Assembly: GCA_019058365.1 (NCBI GenBank)
Contig: JAHPZE010000011.1
Span: 60,921 to 124,920, forward strand
Origin: Promethearchaeota archaeon
Lineage (GTDB): Archaea > Asgardarchaeota > Lokiarchaeia > Sigyniarchaeales > SOKP01
Length of the DNA: 64,000 nucleotides
Direction of reading: 5' to 3'
A model generated the notes under the pieces. That model was not told the origin of the DNA and searched no databases. It saw only the letters and a list, made by a program, of their open reading frames with translations. Of this stretch, positions 22,738-36,496 are shown one piece after another. The position numbers and the translations under genes are program-made. Position 1 is the first letter of the stretch, and each line of letters opens with the position of its first letter.

Positions 22738-22757
22738 ATTATTAAGAACCTAACTAA
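22738..22757. promoter_or_regulatory. Degenerate operator copy upstream of marR
   Basis: ATTATTAAGAACCTAACTAA matches the palindrome at 23319 in 15 of 20 positions. Confidence 0.55.
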
Positions 22758-22760
22758 GAT

Positions 22761-23237
22761 TTGATAATAATGGATGATAAGAATTCTTCAAAATCTTTAG
22801 ATATTTATTGTCAACCAGAAGATATTGTTGAAGTTTTTGAACTTATTAACACATTAAATAAAAAATATGAAAAAATACAACGTGAAAATATACAACAATT
22901 GGAGCTTACACCTACACAACATCTAATACTAAGAGAATTATGGAGATCTGATGGTCAACAATTTAAAAATTTAGCGGAAACATGTAATTGTTCTAGATCC
23001 ACAATTACAGGTGTAGTAGACACAATGGAGAAGAACGATTTGGTATCTCGTGACTCACATCCTAACGATAGAAGAAGCTTGCTGGTTAGACTTACAAAAA
23101 AGGGAAAGGACTTAAGAACTAAAACACCTCGATTAGAATCAATGGTAAATGGATGTTGTCCTGGAATCAATGAGGAAGAAATAAAAAAATTAGGAGAATT
23201 ACTCCAAAAACTACTGAATTCACTAACTTCTTTATGA
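22761..23237 (+). CDS. MarR-family regulator with CxC and CC motifs
   Basis: LTPTQHLIL, TCNCSRSTITGVVDTME, DRRSLLVRLTKKG, NGCCPG. Start is likely the ATG at 22770. Confidence 0.92.
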   Translation: MIIMDDKNSSKSLDIYCQPEDIVEVFELINTLNKKYEKIQRENIQQLELTPTQHLILRELWRSDGQQFKNLAETCNCSRSTITGVVDTMEKNDLVSRDSHPNDRRSLLVRLTKKGKDLRTKTPRLESMVNGCCPGINEEEIKKLGELLQKLLNSLTSL

Positions 23238-23280: not shown

Positions 23281-23348
23281 TTTGTTAGGATCTTAATTAT
23301 ACGAAACAAAACTTTTATATAGTTAGGATCCTAACTATCACCTAACTA
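23281..23348. promoter_or_regulatory. Operator array overlapping a TATA box
   Basis: Perfect palindrome ATAGTTAGGATCCTAACTAT at 23319-23338; 16/20 copy at 23281-23300; half-site CCTAACTA at 23341-23348; TTTATATA at 23314-23321. Confidence 0.75.
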
Positions 23349-23379: not shown

Positions 23380-23478
23380 ATGAGAGATAAAAATGAAAAA
23401 TGTTGTTCTGAAGGATGTTGTGGTGAAGAGACTAAAAGTGTAAAAGAAGAAATTCAGTCAAAAGAAAGATGTTGTTAA
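23380..23478 (+). CDS. 32-aa peptide with three vicinal Cys pairs (metallothionein/metallochaperone-like; not in ORF track)
   Basis: MRDKNEKCCSEGCCGEETKSVKEEIQSKERCC; GAGGT upstream; first ORF after the operator. Confidence 0.75.
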   Translation: MRDKNEKCCSEGCCGEETKSVKEEIQSKERCC

Positions 23479-23666: not shown

Positions 23667-24293
23667 ATGGAGTTTAAAAAAATGAATGTACTGGGTATAG
23701 CAGGGACTCCTAGAAAGCAAGGGAATAGTGAAATCCTCTTAAGATATGCTTTAAAACCATTTAAAAATAATGGATGGGATATTAAAATTTTTCTTTTAAG
23801 TGCATTAACAATAAAACCTTGTAATGCCTGCGACTCATGCAAGAAAACTGGTACCTGTATTATTAATGATGATATGCAAGGGATTTACGATGCATTTCAA
23901 AGGTGTAATGCGATTATAATCTCAAGTCCTGTTTATTACCTAAATGTTAATGCTCAATTACTGTCCTTACTTGATAGATACTATGCAGTAAATAGTACAA
24001 AACCTTTAGAAGGGAAAGTAGGTGGAGCTATTGCTGTTGGTAATGGAACAAATGGAGGTCAAACATTAGCTCTTAATGCTATTTACACATGGATGCTCTC
24101 ATGTGGAATAATATGTGTTCCTGGTGTATTAAATGGGGTAAAAGCTGTAGCAGATAAGCCAGGTGATATTTTAAGCCAAAAAAACCAGTTAAAGCAAGCA
24201 GAAATTCTTGGACTTAATATTCTAAAAGTAGCAAAAGAGTTAAAATCCATCACGAGTTTTAATAAATACCCTAAATATAATAAAAAGGTGTGA
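23667..24293 (+). CDS. Iron-sulfur flavoprotein (Isf)/flavodoxin-fold protein
   Basis: GTPRKQGNS, CNACDSC...C, SSPVYY; stop overlaps the next start (GTGA). Confidence 0.9.
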   Translation: MEFKKMNVLGIAGTPRKQGNSEILLRYALKPFKNNGWDIKIFLLSALTIKPCNACDSCKKTGTCIINDDMQGIYDAFQRCNAIIISSPVYYLNVNAQLLSLLDRYYAVNSTKPLEGKVGGAIAVGNGTNGGQTLALNAIYTWMLSCGIICVPGVLNGVKAVADKPGDILSQKNQLKQAEILGLNILKVAKELKSITSFNKYPKYNKKV

Positions 24294-25975
24294 TTAATAT
24301 CGCAGTAGTCTATATGCGAAAGTTGGAATTAGAACCAGAGTCATACGAATCAAATTTCACAGCTCTAACAAAAGGAGCAAATGAGGAAGTACAAGATTGG
24401 ATATTGGGACGAATTAAAGCACAAGAGAAAATTCTAGAAGTAGGCTGTGGAACAGGTATTTTCGCAGCAAAAATGGCTTTAAGAGGAAATGAGGTATTTG
24501 CAATTGATAAAAACCATAGAATGATAACTACTGCAATGAAAAATTACCCTTCTAAATCAGATCTTAAATTGTTATATCAGATAGGCACTATAGATGATCT
24601 ACCAGTTCAGGATAACTCAATAGATATTATTATTAATACATTTATGCTTTCAGAACTTAGGCCCTTTGAACAACAAATTTTTCTTAGAAATGCATGGAAA
24701 GCTTTAAAACCGAATGGTCGAATGATTATAGCAGCAGAATTTATACCTACAGGTTTCTGGAAGCTTTGGTTTAACATAAAACGTTGGTGGTATAAAAAGA
24801 AATTAAGAAGACTTAGAATAGAAAGTACATTTTTAGTGAAGTGGTTCTTTAATTATTTGGAGCCTATTGGTTTTGAAATTTCAACTATAAAAAAGTGGCG
24901 ACATGGATCAATTCAGGTAATTGAATTAAAAAAGAATGACAATTTAGATGAACCTGGGTATTATCGTCCTAAATTAAGAAAAGCTAAAGGCTTTGGTTCT
25001 CAAATGAGTATTTATCGCTGTCTATTTACTGGACAAACTGATCATATACCAATTGAACCAGGTATTTACCAATCTGGTAATCCCAATGAAAATTCTCCTA
25101 TTATTGTGACAGCTAATTATGTTTATACATATATTAAAGTGATGCGTGCTCTTAAAGGAATAGATTCTTGGGTATTATGTTTAGATTCGAGAGGAATAAA
25201 TGTTTGGTGTGCTGCACGAGGAAACAATTTTGGAAATAAGCAATTAATTGAAGCCGTTAAAACTACGGGAATAGCAAATATTACTAATAAAAAGACAATT
25301 ATTGTACCTCAACTCTCAGCAGGAGGAATCGCAACACCGCTGATAAAAGCTGAGGCCCCAGACTTTCCATTTAATGTTGTATATGGTCCTGTATGGGCTA
25401 AATTTTTACCTAAATACTTAGAAGAACGTCCCGCTCGAAAACCTGATAAAATGAAATTAGCAAAATTTACAATATCGCATCGTTTTCGAGCAGAAATTAC
25501 ACATACAACATTTTTACTTCGAAAGATTTTTCTATGGCCCAGTATCGCCATAATTTTATTATTTACAGGTCTAAGTTTTATTAATCCTGTATGGATAACA
25601 CAATTATTGATTGTGGGCGAAATTTGGCTTTGGATAATTATAGCAAATGCGCTTATTGCGATATTTTTTCCCATAACAAAATTTACGAGGAAATTTATCA
25701 ATAAAGGAATCATTTTTGGAGTTATTAATGTTTTATTGTTTGGTGGAATTTCTTGGCTTTTTCATTATTCTCTGTTATCCATTCTTCTGAGTAGTATTTT
25801 TTACTTTTGGTTAGCTTTCTTTTCGACAATGTCATTTAGTGGATATACTATGGCAACAAGTCCTAGAGAAATTCAAGATGAGTATCCTATTTTCAGTAAA
25901 ATTAATATGATTTTATTGATAATAGGTCTTGTTACCAAAATTATTGGGTTCATTTTTTTTAATATTTTAAAATAA
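24290..25975 (+). CDS. Class I SAM methyltransferase fused to an HgcA-like corrinoid protein with C-terminal membrane domain
   Basis: N-terminal ILEVGCGTG and LKPNG. Then IEPGIY..GNP..NSPIIVTANY, GINVWCAARG cap helix, PQLSAGG and YGPV; about 5 TM helices; FSGYTMATS. Confidence 0.88.
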   Translation: MINIAVVYMRKLELEPESYESNFTALTKGANEEVQDWILGRIKAQEKILEVGCGTGIFAAKMALRGNEVFAIDKNHRMITTAMKNYPSKSDLKLLYQIGTIDDLPVQDNSIDIIINTFMLSELRPFEQQIFLRNAWKALKPNGRMIIAAEFIPTGFWKLWFNIKRWWYKKKLRRLRIESTFLVKWFFNYLEPIGFEISTIKKWRHGSIQVIELKKNDNLDEPGYYRPKLRKAKGFGSQMSIYRCLFTGQTDHIPIEPGIYQSGNPNENSPIIVTANYVYTYIKVMRALKGIDSWVLCLDSRGINVWCAARGNNFGNKQLIEAVKTTGIANITNKKTIIVPQLSAGGIATPLIKAEAPDFPFNVVYGPVWAKFLPKYLEERPARKPDKMKLAKFTISHRFRAEITHTTFLLRKIFLWPSIAIILLFTGLSFINPVWITQLLIVGEIWLWIIIANALIAIFFPITKFTRKFINKGIIFGVINVLLFGGISWLFHYSLLSILLSSIFYFWLAFFSTMSFSGYTMATSPREIQDEYPIFSKINMILLIIGLVTKIIGFIFFNILK

Positions 25976-26023: not shown

Positions 26024-26329
26024 GTGGTAAAAGTAACAGTAAAACCAACCTCAATTAAGATACCGACAGTTCTTCCAAAAATCTCGATAAATCCCGATTT
26101 GTGCACAGGTTGTGGCATATGCGGAGAAGTATGTCCGTTTGGAATACCAAAACCTAATAATGAAGGAAAATTTGAGATGTATGAACCAGAACGCTGTACA
26201 GAATGTTCAGCTTGTAAACGAAATTGCCCGACAATGGCTATCATATTACAAGAACGAAAAGGTTGCGGTTGTTTATGGAATGCACGTGCAGTAGCGAAAA
26301 ATCCACAAATTAATAGTTGTTGTGGATAA
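26024..26329 (+). CDS. HgcB-like 2[4Fe-4S] ferredoxin
   Basis: CTGCGICGEVCP, CTECSACKRNCP, GCGC and C-terminal SCCG; directly follows the hgcA-like gene. Confidence 0.85.
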   Translation: MVKVTVKPTSIKIPTVLPKISINPDLCTGCGICGEVCPFGIPKPNNEGKFEMYEPERCTECSACKRNCPTMAIILQERKGCGCLWNARAVAKNPQINSCCG

Positions 26330-26368: not shown

Positions 26369-27226
26369 TTAATAATCAAACATCTTTCTCTTCTTCTCTT
26401 CAAGAAAGCTTCTTCTAGTCAAGATCTCCATTTCCGCATTTAGCCAACAAAGTTCATCATAAGTACAGCTTGAATTGAAGACTTCCTCTGCCTTTCTCTT
26501 AATATCTTCAATAGAGGGCATATCAAGGTTTATTTTCTGAATTTTTTCAGCTAAAATCCAACATAGTTGGTCGTAAGTATATTCATCTAAAGAAAGATAA
26601 TATGCTGCTTCCCTTATTTGTGTCTTAAAATCTGGCTCTTCTGGTTGTTCTTTTTTCTCTTCAACTTTTTTTTGTTCCTTGGGTTCCATTTCAACTTTCG
26701 CGGGAGGTTGTTCAAACTCAACGAATTTAACAGTTTCAGGAGATTCTTTTAGCTTTTTAGATAGCTCATAGCTTCTATGATCCTTAATTTGTTGAAGCCA
26801 CTCTAATATTGGTGTTTCAATTTTTCTTTCTCTCTCTTCCACAGGTACATTAAATTTAACAGGTTTTATCCTTTCAGAAGGTGTTTTTAATACAAATTCT
26901 GGTCTTCGTTCAACAGTTTTCCCTGGTATTAACCCTCTTTCAAGATCATGCATCATAGCTAAAAAGGAGCCATATTCTCTCTTTTGTTTCATGATCAAGA
27001 TTTTTACTGATCCACCACGTTCTTTATCTATCTTCCGAGCAATTTCAGCAATAATATCCTTTTTTTCTTGAGGTACTTCTAAACCTACCCAAATATAAAT
27101 AGTATTTTTTTCTTCGTCATCAACAAGATATCCATTATTTTCATTAAAAGATAATCTATCTATCTTAATTAATTCGCCCTCATTACTAATATTAAATAGT
27201 TTCATTACACTCTCTCTCATGAACAT
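26369..27226 (-). CDS. Single-domain gelsolin with C-terminal X domain (1DGelX-like actin regulator)
   Basis: Gelsolin-fold YLVDD...IYIWVG...Q.RE...F; acidic linker; two AYYLS..YD.LCW..AE repeats. Confidence 0.8.
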   Translation of the reverse strand: MFMRESVMKLFNISNEGELIKIDRLSFNENNGYLVDDEEKNTIYIWVGLEVPQEKKDIIAEIARKIDKERGGSVKILIMKQKREYGSFLAMMHDLERGLIPGKTVERRPEFVLKTPSERIKPVKFNVPVEERERKIETPILEWLQQIKDHRSYELSKKLKESPETVKFVEFEQPPAKVEMEPKEQKKVEEKKEQPEEPDFKTQIREAAYYLSLDEYTYDQLCWILAEKIQKINLDMPSIEDIKRKAEEVFNSSCTYDELCWLNAEMEILTRRSFLEEKKRKMFDY

Positions 27227-34423: not shown

Positions 34424-36496
34424 TTATTTTTTAAAATAATTTTCTATGATTTTAACCCAAGGATGATTTTCAATATAATGCCTTTCGGTACGTATATATT
34501 CATCGCTTTGTATGTTTTTAATACATTCTTGAATCTGTGGCATTGAATTCAATTTCCTATTAATTATATATTGAGATACTTGGTTAATTAAATCAGTATT
34601 TAAACCATCTGATTGAAACTTTTCGGAAAATACTGATTCAATGATCAAGATATTTATTAAATCTTCTAAAAATTTAATATAATCTTTGTTATCATCTCTT
34701 AAAGCCTCATTTCCGTTCATTTGATTCATTATATATGCCAAAATATTGAAAGGCTCATAATCTTCGAAAAATCTAAGTGGTAATCGATTGATGTTATTGA
34801 TAGAGATTTCTATAGTCAAATGAGCACCCAAATTAAAAACAAAGTCATAGTAGAAATTCATTAGTTTCGAATTCATTAGTAGAAGTAGATATTTTATACT
34901 GAAATTATTCTCTGCATTATCTCTTGGAATAATCGCGATACACGTGCTTAAAGGATAATAATTCTTATTGTCATATGCTACAGTGAGATTTGAACTAATT
35001 GTTTGCATAATCAATTTTTCAGGCTTTTGAAATATAGATTCATCTCTCGCCCTATGAAGAGCTTTTATATCATAGAATACATATAATTCATCGGAGTCTA
35101 TGTAAAATCGCCCTATATTTTTCCCTCTCAAAGTTTTTTTATATGTAATATTTTTTTTATGATCTGCTAAGAATTTCTCATCATCTCCAGTAGCTATACA
35201 AGTTTTAGCTTCAAAATACTTGATTAAATCACAGTTTTTTGTCCCTTTTAAATAATTAATAATTTCAAGTTCATTATATTGGAGTTCTAAATTGAAATTA
35301 TAATTTTCTTGCTCCAAATATGTTTTTTGTGCAATTTGATTTAATATTAGCTCATCTTCTTCAAATCTGCATTTATTTTGATTATAGAATTTAGATTTTA
35401 TCAATATTATATGATCTTCTGAAGGTGGTTTTGTTGCCATGACTATAATAATTGTCTCAGCTGTTATAGATTGAAAAGCTCCAGCACCCACATCAATGAT
35501 TTCCTCAATTTTAGTGTATTCTAATAGGTATTTTCTTAATAAATCATAATTATTTGACCGAATAATATTTTTGTGAACGATACAACTTATTCTTGAAGAT
35601 GAATGACATAATTTTATAGATCGTTCGATAAAAATTCCAAAAACATTCATTAATCCTTTAGATGTTTTATATCTATTTTGATAAATTGCCTTCTCGAGAG
35701 GACTCAACTGCTTGTTAGAGATATATGGTGGATTTTCAATGATTATGTCAAAACCCCCTTTTTCCATAATTTCTGGAAATTCATAAAACCAATGAAATGG
35801 CTTTAATTTGAATACCATTGCTTTCTTTTGTTTTTCTGTTAATTCAATTTTCTTTAAATCCTTGTGAGTTTCAAATACAATTTTAATTTCCTCATAAAAA
35901 CAAGAATTTAAATCTGTACAAACGGGATTATTCATTTCCGATTGTCTTATAAAACCAACTATTGCGTTACCTACCTTAAAATGGGAATCAATATCTGGTA
36001 AAGCCTTAAAGTCTTTTGAATTAGTGACTAAATCTTTTAGTGTTGATAACAATCTCCTTTTCGTAACAACAATTGCTTCAATTTCAATATCAACACCAAA
36101 CAAATTGTTTGATATAATGTATTCTCTGATTTTATACTTAGACCAGTTTATTATTCCTAAGCTTTTCAAGTTTAGATAATAGCCTTCTAAAACCTGTAAT
36201 GCAGCAATTATAAAGTGCCCACTGCCTACAGCAGGATCTATGACTTTTAGAGAAATAATTATTTCAAAAATATATTCAAGTCGTTCTCTATCACTTCTAG
36301 TAATAGAAAGGTCTACAAACTTTTGCCTTGTTTTATTCTTTTTATAATCTTTTTCAAATAATTCATTCAATTTCGATAGTTCAGTTAAGAACTTATTATT
36401 TATTTTTTCAAGCAAAAATCTTTCGATTGTAGTTTTAGCGATATAATTTGCTATAATTTCAGGTGTATATACTGTTCCTTCCTTCTGGTTGTTCAT
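34424..36496 (-). CDS. Adenine-specific DNA methyltransferase (gamma class, Eco57I/TaqI-like), orphan
   Basis: YTP, DPAVGSGHF (motif I), ENPPY (motif IV), C-terminal LLLMNSKLMNFYY target-recognition region. Confidence 0.88.
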   Translation of the reverse strand: MNNQKEGTVYTPEIIANYIAKTTIERFLLEKINNKFLTELSKLNELFEKDYKKNKTRQKFVDLSITRSDRERLEYIFEIIISLKVIDPAVGSGHFIIAALQVLEGYYLNLKSLGIINWSKYKIREYIISNNLFGVDIEIEAIVVTKRRLLSTLKDLVTNSKDFKALPDIDSHFKVGNAIVGFIRQSEMNNPVCTDLNSCFYEEIKIVFETHKDLKKIELTEKQKKAMVFKLKPFHWFYEFPEIMEKGGFDIIIENPPYISNKQLSPLEKAIYQNRYKTSKGLMNVFGIFIERSIKLCHSSSRISCIVHKNIIRSNNYDLLRKYLLEYTKIEEIIDVGAGAFQSITAETIIIVMATKPPSEDHIILIKSKFYNQNKCRFEEDELILNQIAQKTYLEQENYNFNLELQYNELEIINYLKGTKNCDLIKYFEAKTCIATGDDEKFLADHKKNITYKKTLRGKNIGRFYIDSDELYVFYDIKALHRARDESIFQKPEKLIMQTISSNLTVAYDNKNYYPLSTCIAIIPRDNAENNFSIKYLLLLMNSKLMNFYYDFVFNLGAHLTIEISINNINRLPLRFFEDYEPFNILAYIMNQMNGNEALRDDNKDYIKFLEDLINILIIESVFSEKFQSDGLNTDLINQVSQYIINRKLNSMPQIQECIKNIQSDEYIRTERHYIENHPWVKIIENYFKK

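Follow-up and report, generated by a model that had tools for sequence, protein, structure and literature searches.

An Asgard archaeal fusion of a CpaM-like methyltransferase with an HgcA paralogue, probably a toxic-metal(loid) methylating enzyme and not a proven mercury methylator

We analysed a stretch of 64,000 nucleotides of a Promethearchaeota archaeon (GCA_019058365.1, contig JAHPZE010000011.1, positions 60,921 to 124,920 of the forward strand; the window), in which a class I SAM methyltransferase is fused in frame to a membrane-anchored corrinoid protein of the HgcA superfamily. As its relatives mostly lie next to arsenic-resistance genes, the product is probably an enzyme methylating toxic metal(loid)s, and it is not a proven mercury methylator. 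The anatomy of the fusion lineage, its conservation, the linkage of its modules, its position in the tree and its ars-operon context are the established part of the case. The function that we favour, with a probability of about one half, is methylation of a thiophilic metal(loid) by a cobamide-dependent enzyme of three parts, anchored in the membrane, in which the cobamide would be loaded from SAM in cis. The gene context favours trivalent arsenic or a methylarsenical as the acceptor, an assignment that we offer tentatively; arsenic would be more likely than mercury, and Hg or Sb are possible.

A genuine and conserved fusion

The sequence-only reading had proposed an in-frame fusion of a SAM methyltransferase with an HgcA-like corrinoid and transmembrane protein, and the open frame and the homologues bear it out. 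The 561 codons run in one frame with no internal stop, and the modules follow each other in the order class I SAM methyltransferase, corrinoid domain with the cap helix NVWCAARG, membrane domain (Table 1). The best 120 homologues, coming from NCBI, JGI, ENA and Logan, are 62-100% identical across 90-100% of the length; most of the named ones belong to Promethearchaeota, and labels of Thor-, Hod-, Hermod- and Heimdallarchaeota occur too. Because these homologues are near full length, the cap motif is identical in 120 of 120, and one contig spans the gene at a depth of about 83 with zero differences (the sequencing run may be of the source sample), the fusion is genuine and not a misassembly; neither a stop nor a misjoin was found between the domains.

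Concerning the limits of the gene, the frame proposed earlier stands, while its start at GTG 24290 probably does not. Across 27 loci, 19 have ATG or TTG and 8 have ATC or ATA at exactly the site of position 24299, so that ATC 24299 is likely the true start. The ATC/ATA codons at this conserved start occur in the window (24299-24301) and in relatives (L032, L033, L035-L038, L048), with a GGTG(A)-like site ahead, and in L032 and L048 upstream in-frame stops exclude any earlier start. This suggests that translation can begin at AUC or AUA in this group of archaea.

Table 1. Features of the fusion locus (positions in the window)
Feature	Position	Strand	Remark
Cys-rich MarR regulator	22761..23237	+	
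Perfect 14-bp palindrome, candidate MarR operator	23322..23335	.	near copies at 23284-23297 and 22741-22754
32-aa peptide with three CC pairs	23380..23478	+	conserved in closest relatives; candidate metal(loid) binder
Iron-sulfur flavoprotein-like (FMN_red) gene abutting the fusion	23667..24293	+	only in some relatives
CpaM-like methyltransferase fused to HgcA paralogue	24290..25975	+	561 aa from GTG; probable true start ATC 24299
Class I SAM methyltransferase domain, CpaM-like (residues 6-214)	24305..24931	+	NF043040 137 bits, cut-off 180
Corrinoid-binding Rossmann domain (PF03599), HgcA superfamily	25004..25444	+	
Cap helix NVWCAARG, residues 304-311	25199..25222	+	Cys307 aligned to Co-ligating Cys93 of HgcA (PMC7305189)
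HgcA-type transmembrane bundle	25472..25972	+	
HgcB-like 2[4Fe-4S] ferredoxin, GCGC and C-terminal CC	26024..26329	+	NF040864 53.5 bits, cut-off 99

In the methyltransferase domain, Pfam recognises Methyltransf_11 at residues 49-147 (E 7e-17), and the glycine-rich SAM motif EVGCGTG occupies residues 50-56 (nt 24437-24457). A resemblance to corrinoid-protein-associated methyltransferases, proposed earlier, is supported by the best NCBIfam match of the domain, CpaM (NF043040, 'corrinoid protein-associated methyltransferase'), a family of hypothetical function. The full model is matched at 137-139 bits, below its cut-off; other fusions clear the cut-off with 222-246 bits, and the best-scoring non-CpaM methyltransferase of this genome reaches 66 bits. 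As in CpaM, a class I SAM fold is linked to an HgcA-like corrinoid protein.

The corrinoid domain gives a Pfam CdhD match (PF03599) at residues 239-344. The sequence-only reading held that the cobalt-ligating cysteine had been retained, and indeed Cys307 (codon TGT at 25208), aligned with Cys93, is invariant and lies in a cap motif modelled as helical. The glycines and acidic residues of the SAM site are invariant in 117 sequences, and within the fusion lineage the SAM motif, the cap cysteine and the Fe-S ligands are all invariant. An AlphaFold2 model of the fusion based on the 117 sequences (pLDDT 91, pTM 0.87) agrees with hydropathy in giving hydrophobic C-terminal helices; Foldseek ranked the HgcAB model 9a0b first among its matches and class I methyltransferases next.

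The ferredoxin partner

Directly 3' of the fusion, in nearly all loci, lies a ferredoxin gene whose product has the two ferredoxin motifs. The sequence-only reading had overlooked this HgcB-like partner, as it had the setting in arsenic operons. Its GCGC, present in 24 of 24 lineage ferredoxins, sits at the position of HgcB Cys73 and adds a further cysteine, and a terminal CC is present in 21 of 24. The activity of HgcB depends on Cys73 and the terminal CC, which have been proposed to carry the metal (PMC7305189). The window ferredoxin thus has a Cys73 equivalent and C-terminal cysteines and adjoins an hgcA-like gene; however, it carries CTECSA and GCGC where canonical HgcB has C(M/I)ECGA and GVGC, and its score is below the HgcB cut-off. 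Fused HgcAB-like proteins do not have the cysteine tail, so by this feature, read from the sequences, the window lineage is nearer to true HgcAB than the fused type is.

CpaM as a third part of non-canonical HgcA systems

The methyltransferase (M), the HgcA-like protein (A) and the ferredoxin (B) were found in four arrangements: M+AB, MA+B as at the window locus, MAB and M+A+B. The window's own genome carries the three modules in two of these layouts. Besides MA+B it has, on contig C48 (L001 6956-8736, - strand), a stand-alone cpaM directly upstream of an HgcAB-like fusion gene with the cap motif NVWCGACG; they score 255 bits (CpaM) and 376 bits (HgcAB-like), both above cut-offs, and the locus has zero ars neighbours. 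Triple fusions were found in a search of 1.84 billion representatives. Fusions of the MA+B type, with differing cap motifs, are present in the bacterial groups Chloroflexota, Poribacteria, Zixibacteria and Abyssubacteria. In other Asgard families (L131-L138, L144) the cpaM, hgcA-like and ferredoxin genes are fully split, and the 72-aa ferredoxins have no cysteine tail.

In 301 Asgard genomes an HgcA-like gene was present in 139 and a CpaM-like gene in 139, 136 genomes being common to both lists (compared by eye), and all of the best 20 CpaM matches adjoin an HgcA-like match or are in frame with one. CpaM is present at nearly all non-canonical HgcA loci examined. Since it lies directly upstream in 4 of 5 diverse HgcAB-like representatives and shares those 136 genomes, against 0 of 37 canonical hgcA loci (some with short flanks), CpaM is a regular third part of non-canonical HgcA systems and gives no reason to suppose that canonical HgcA lacks a partner. 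The Rosetta-stone logic of the sequence-only reading is therefore strengthened, the same modules being split or fused in four ways, but does not extend to canonical HgcA, whose purified HgcAB complex reportedly takes the methyl group from SAM unaided (PMC11588087).

The CpaM plus HgcAB-like type (NF043040, NF043039) has the same three modules as the window locus; the latter differs in that the methyltransferase is joined to A while B is free, in its ars link and in its separate clade. A complex prediction of the stand-alone CpaM of the window's genome with the HgcAB-like corrinoid domain and SAM gave 0.24 and 0.26, against a mark of 0.32, and we count it neither for nor against an interaction. 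Some bacterial CpaM-HgcA fusions are close to canonical: the one at L057 (5986-7575) carries NVWCSAGK, one of the six strict hgcA motifs, scores 228 bits on HgcA and has arsR upstream, and ferredoxins at L059, L060 and L065 have CMECGA and GVGC, so that strict hgcAB screens could accept such loci.

Gene neighbourhood and the link to arsenic

Genes for arsR, acr3, arsC or arsM were found within 4 kb in 26 of 40 distinct loci of the window lineage (a pump or enzyme in 14 of 40), compared with 3 of 42 loci of other paralogues and 14 of 37 canonical hgcA loci; neighbours were labelled by home-made HMMs seeded from the window lineage, distant controls may be undercounted, and the counts are descriptive and not a statistical test because the loci are related and not independent. 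A common order in relatives begins with arsR and acr3 and goes on with the fusion, the ferredoxin, a gene for a small CxC protein, a MoaD-like gene and sometimes arsC. Often acr3 is directly upstream of the fusion, ending 26 bp before it in L039, and in Thorarchaeota arsR abuts the fusion.

At the window locus no ars gene adjoins the fusion, which together with its ferredoxin stands behind the Cys-rich MarR, the CC peptide and the flavoprotein. The ars operon of the same genome, on contig C34, reads arsR, acr3, about 100 bp, CxC protein, MoaD-like gene, and what is absent from it is just the fusion and the ferredoxin, the two genes that relatives have in that slot. The simplest reading is that the pair moved out of an ars operon, insertion into it in the relatives being the alternative. 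The CxC (CAC-motif) and MoaD-like genes (contig C34 289936-290592; L039 8050-8826) are conserved in Promethearchaeota ars operons and have zero Pfam or NCBIfam matches, their names being working labels; an ArsD-like role is possible for the CAC-motif protein.

A homologue of the MarR regulator (50% identity) heads a marR-arsM-DUF166-fusion-ferredoxin run in L156. Copies of the palindrome are found at matching positions in four MarR-type relatives and in none of two ArsR-type loci checked, and only 2 sites within 1 mismatch occur in the whole genome; a sigma-70 promoter scan stayed at chance level. The flavoprotein-like product is a possible electron input.

Like ArsM (NF008823), the fusion has a SAM-dependent class I fold and an ars-operon setting. 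However, ArsM methylates arsenic directly via its own cysteines, while the CpaM domain does not have this arsenic-binding pattern and is tied to a cobamide protein; the two have only the Rossmann core in common (26% over 114 columns), and the ArsM model gives 46.6 bits against a cut-off of 263. Of the 301 Asgard genomes 177 have ArsM, and at L050 and L156 it even shares the operon of the fusion, so a plain replacement of ArsM by the fusion is rejected.

A putative methylation cycle and its acceptor

HgcAB is known to yield methyl-Co(III) with cysteine ligation from SAM (PMC11588087), and the chemistry of the cycle proposed here is borrowed from that system (PMC11588087, PMC7305189). By homology with HgcB, the ferredoxin would reduce the cobamide to Co(I). 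As the linkage with CpaM suggests, the fused domain would then bind SAM and pass the methyl group in cis to Co(I); in the methyl-Co(III) so formed, Cys307 would be the lower ligand. The methyl group would finally pass to a metal(loid) held on the thiols of the ferredoxin GCGC and terminal CC, and the product would be exported. This metal(loid) reading is supported by modules that travel together, by the invariant residues, by the HgcB-type cysteines and by the ars context.

Several points count against arsenic in particular, the wide occurrence of ArsM in Asgard genomes among them. Strain ND132, with canonical HgcAB, produced zero mono- or dimethylarsenicals (10.1101/2022.10.17.512643), ArsR-family proteins sense many ligands, and the window locus has no adjoining ars gene. 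Canonical hgcAB is likewise found near ars genes (PMC7438021), so context alone cannot name the substrate. It is conceivable, with a probability well below that of a metal(loid) acceptor, that the methyl group goes to an organic or membrane acceptor such as a thiol, a lipid or a quinone, the ars linkage being regulatory or incidental: the protein is anchored in the membrane, its methyltransferase domain resembles UbiE/PmtA-like folds, and the other CpaM-linked lineages have few ars neighbours and many ferredoxins without the cysteine tail. On the other hand the thiol-rich ferredoxin, the CC peptide, the Cys-rich regulators and the adjacency to acr3 all point to a soft metal(loid).

The role of SAM can be read in another way. 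In methionine synthase an oxidised cobamide is activated in a SAM-dependent step, and the SAM domain of the fusion might merely reactivate its cobamide in this manner, while the methyl group used in catalysis comes from a different donor, or the enzyme acts as a demethylase, for instance of methylarsenicals. Inactivation to Co(II) and reductive rescue are general for cobamide methyltransferases, although SAM is the catalytic methyl donor of HgcAB itself (PMC11588087). Where arsM is in the same operon, a different step would fit; yet zero other methyl-donor or acceptor proteins recur beside the locus, and we rate this possibility slightly below that of an organic acceptor.

Relationship to HgcA and mercury methylation

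We computed a maximum-likelihood tree of the corrinoid domain (159 columns, 97 rows, rooted on CdhE), leaving out the long-branch P0394 and near-duplicates; the rows did not include ND132, P. furiosus or M. methylutens, the strains that have been assayed. The HgcA superfamily, the window protein included, is split from CdhE at 100/100, which agrees with the earlier grouping with HgcA and not with CFeSP. Canonical HgcA forms a single clade (99/97); a second clade (98/97) holds the fused HgcAB-like and triple-fusion proteins together with the Chloroflexota fusions. The window protein is outside both, in a third clade of Promethearchaeota and Thorarchaeota (95/89), and is thus a separate Asgard lineage, neither CFeSP nor canonical HgcA nor fused HgcAB-like; the idea of a canonical HgcA with an altered motif is not supported. 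AU tests allowed a single clade of all CpaM-linked lineages (p 0.46) as well as a union of the window lineage with canonical HgcA (p 0.55).

The sequence-only reading described the cap motif as GK replaced by RG. The motif does differ from GK, but the direction may be wrong, Gly being common in CpaM-linked paralogues. Among representatives, 83 of the 91 proteins that stand alone have Lys at Cys+4; of the 48 that are fused to a methyltransferase or a ferredoxin, 0 have it, Gly being the prevailing residue there. Lys at this position is thus the canonical speciality, and RG is one of several non-canonical states. A more speculative scenario, to which we give less weight than to arsenic as acceptor, would make the lineage a cobamide-dependent arsenic/metalloid methyltransferase without ArsM chemistry, the CpaM-HgcA-HgcB trio ancestral, and mercury-methylating HgcAB a product of SAM-domain loss and gain of Lys at Cys+4. 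The order that it demands is neither shown nor rejected by the AU values above; if true, the scenario would provide the native function that has long been sought for HgcA-family proteins.

Scoring against profiles, which the sequence-only reading had proposed, places the protein nearer to HgcA than to AcsC/CdhE, both scores being under cut-offs. The HgcA model (NF040863) gives 169 bits for the whole protein and 171.5 for the A part alone (cut-off 275; canonical control 436), AcsC/CdhE (NF003195) 70 bits against 306, the cap Cys and membrane domain being present, and the HgcAB-like model (NF043039) 175 bits against 285, its fused type being at odds with a ferredoxin encoded by a separate gene.

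It could be asked whether the locus encodes a true mercury methylase, that is an HgcAB variant with its own SAM-loading domain. In common with canonical HgcA and HgcB (NF040863, NF040864; Pseudodesulfovibrio mercurii ND132) it has a corrinoid domain with a cysteine at the Cys93 position of a helical cap, a C-terminal membrane bundle, an adjacent ferredoxin with all key cysteines and frequent ars neighbours in its lineage; the Foldseek match to 9a0b and the permitted sister position to canonical HgcA point the same way, and some cap-helix substitutions are tolerated (PMC10087281). Unlike canonical HgcA, however, it has an added SAM methyltransferase domain and RG in place of GK, scores far under the cut-off, carries neither the strict HgcA motifs nor the strict HgcB motif and belongs to a separate clade. 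Moreover, the non-canonical homologues tested, in P. furiosus and M. methylutens (both of the fused HgcAB type), produced zero methylmercury (PMC5893877). A mercury methylase is therefore improbable, marginally more so than a reactivating SAM domain. Much less probable still is a Co(I) reductive dehalogenation of halomethanes, which a preprint reports for HgcAB (10.64898/2026.04.26.720869) but which would leave unexplained why a SAM methyltransferase is retained with the protein.

An origin from CFeSP (AcsC/CdhE) or by chimeric assembly can be dismissed, in spite of the CdhD match and a weak similarity to CFeSP chains, by the 100/100 split, the genome's own CdhE on contig C34, more than 100 full-length fusions from many sources and the contig support. 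The CFeSP large subunit shares the PF03599 corrinoid fold with its cap helix; it differs in having Thr at the position of the cap Cys and no membrane domain, in being a distant outgroup, and in taking its methyl group from tetrahydrofolate or tetrahydromethanopterin. A search of a plasmid collection with the fusion returned a single weak CdhE-like match.

Consequences for hgcA screens

Strict hgcA screens use six cap-helix motifs ending in GK (PMC10087281), and these matched 0 of the 120 fusion homologues, as the sequence-only reading had expected, while a relaxed motif (PMC12484752) matched 120 of 120. A 2025 sediment study with the relaxed motif counts Asgardarchaeota as putative methylators (PMC12484752). 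Environmental mercury surveys are affected, since strict filters drop the fusion family and the relaxed motif accepts it; such Asgard methylator counts may be inflated, or a large group of sediment organisms may so far have escaped notice.

Zhang et al. (2023, ISME J) reportedly found hgcA in about 100 Asgard genomes and proposed these as potential Hg methylators; the family of the window is probably among them and hence already seen. Lin et al. (2023) placed Thorarchaeota and Lokiarchaeota homologues in a fused-HgcAB subtree after dropping the first 327 poorly aligned positions, and in the keyword passages of that paper a methyltransferase fusion is unmentioned (PMC10083202). We found no paper naming CpaM or an N-terminal methyltransferase on HgcA, within an incomplete coverage of the literature. 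CpaM and Asgard hgcA-like genes are thus already catalogued, while in the papers searched the fusion itself appears undescribed, as do the rearrangement in four ways, the status as a separate lineage and the ars setting.

With its own methyl-loading domain and an operon pointing to arsenic, the lineage makes the native role of the HgcA family testable, and as a natural fusion it suits a clean domain-deletion test of the SAM-to-cobalt route. The linkage also suggests that, in the negative tests on fused HgcAB strains, a third part and perhaps the substrate were unrecognised at the time.

The canonical HgcA cut-off was passed by only one of the 139 HgcA-like-positive genomes (301 Asgard genomes sampled). 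This sole canonical hgcA (L003, G025:C110) has Anaerolineae as its closest named non-Asgard relatives, at about 73-76% identity, hinting at acquisition by transfer.

Two further genes of the window should be mentioned. The product of 26369-27226 (- strand), syntenic in close relatives, weakly matches a gelsolin repeat in its N-terminal part (E 0.005) and is a candidate for a typical Asgard eukaryote-signature protein. The 690-aa ORF at 34424-36496 (- strand), with an NPPY motif in its translation, looks like the N6-adenine methyltransferase of a type II restriction-modification system.
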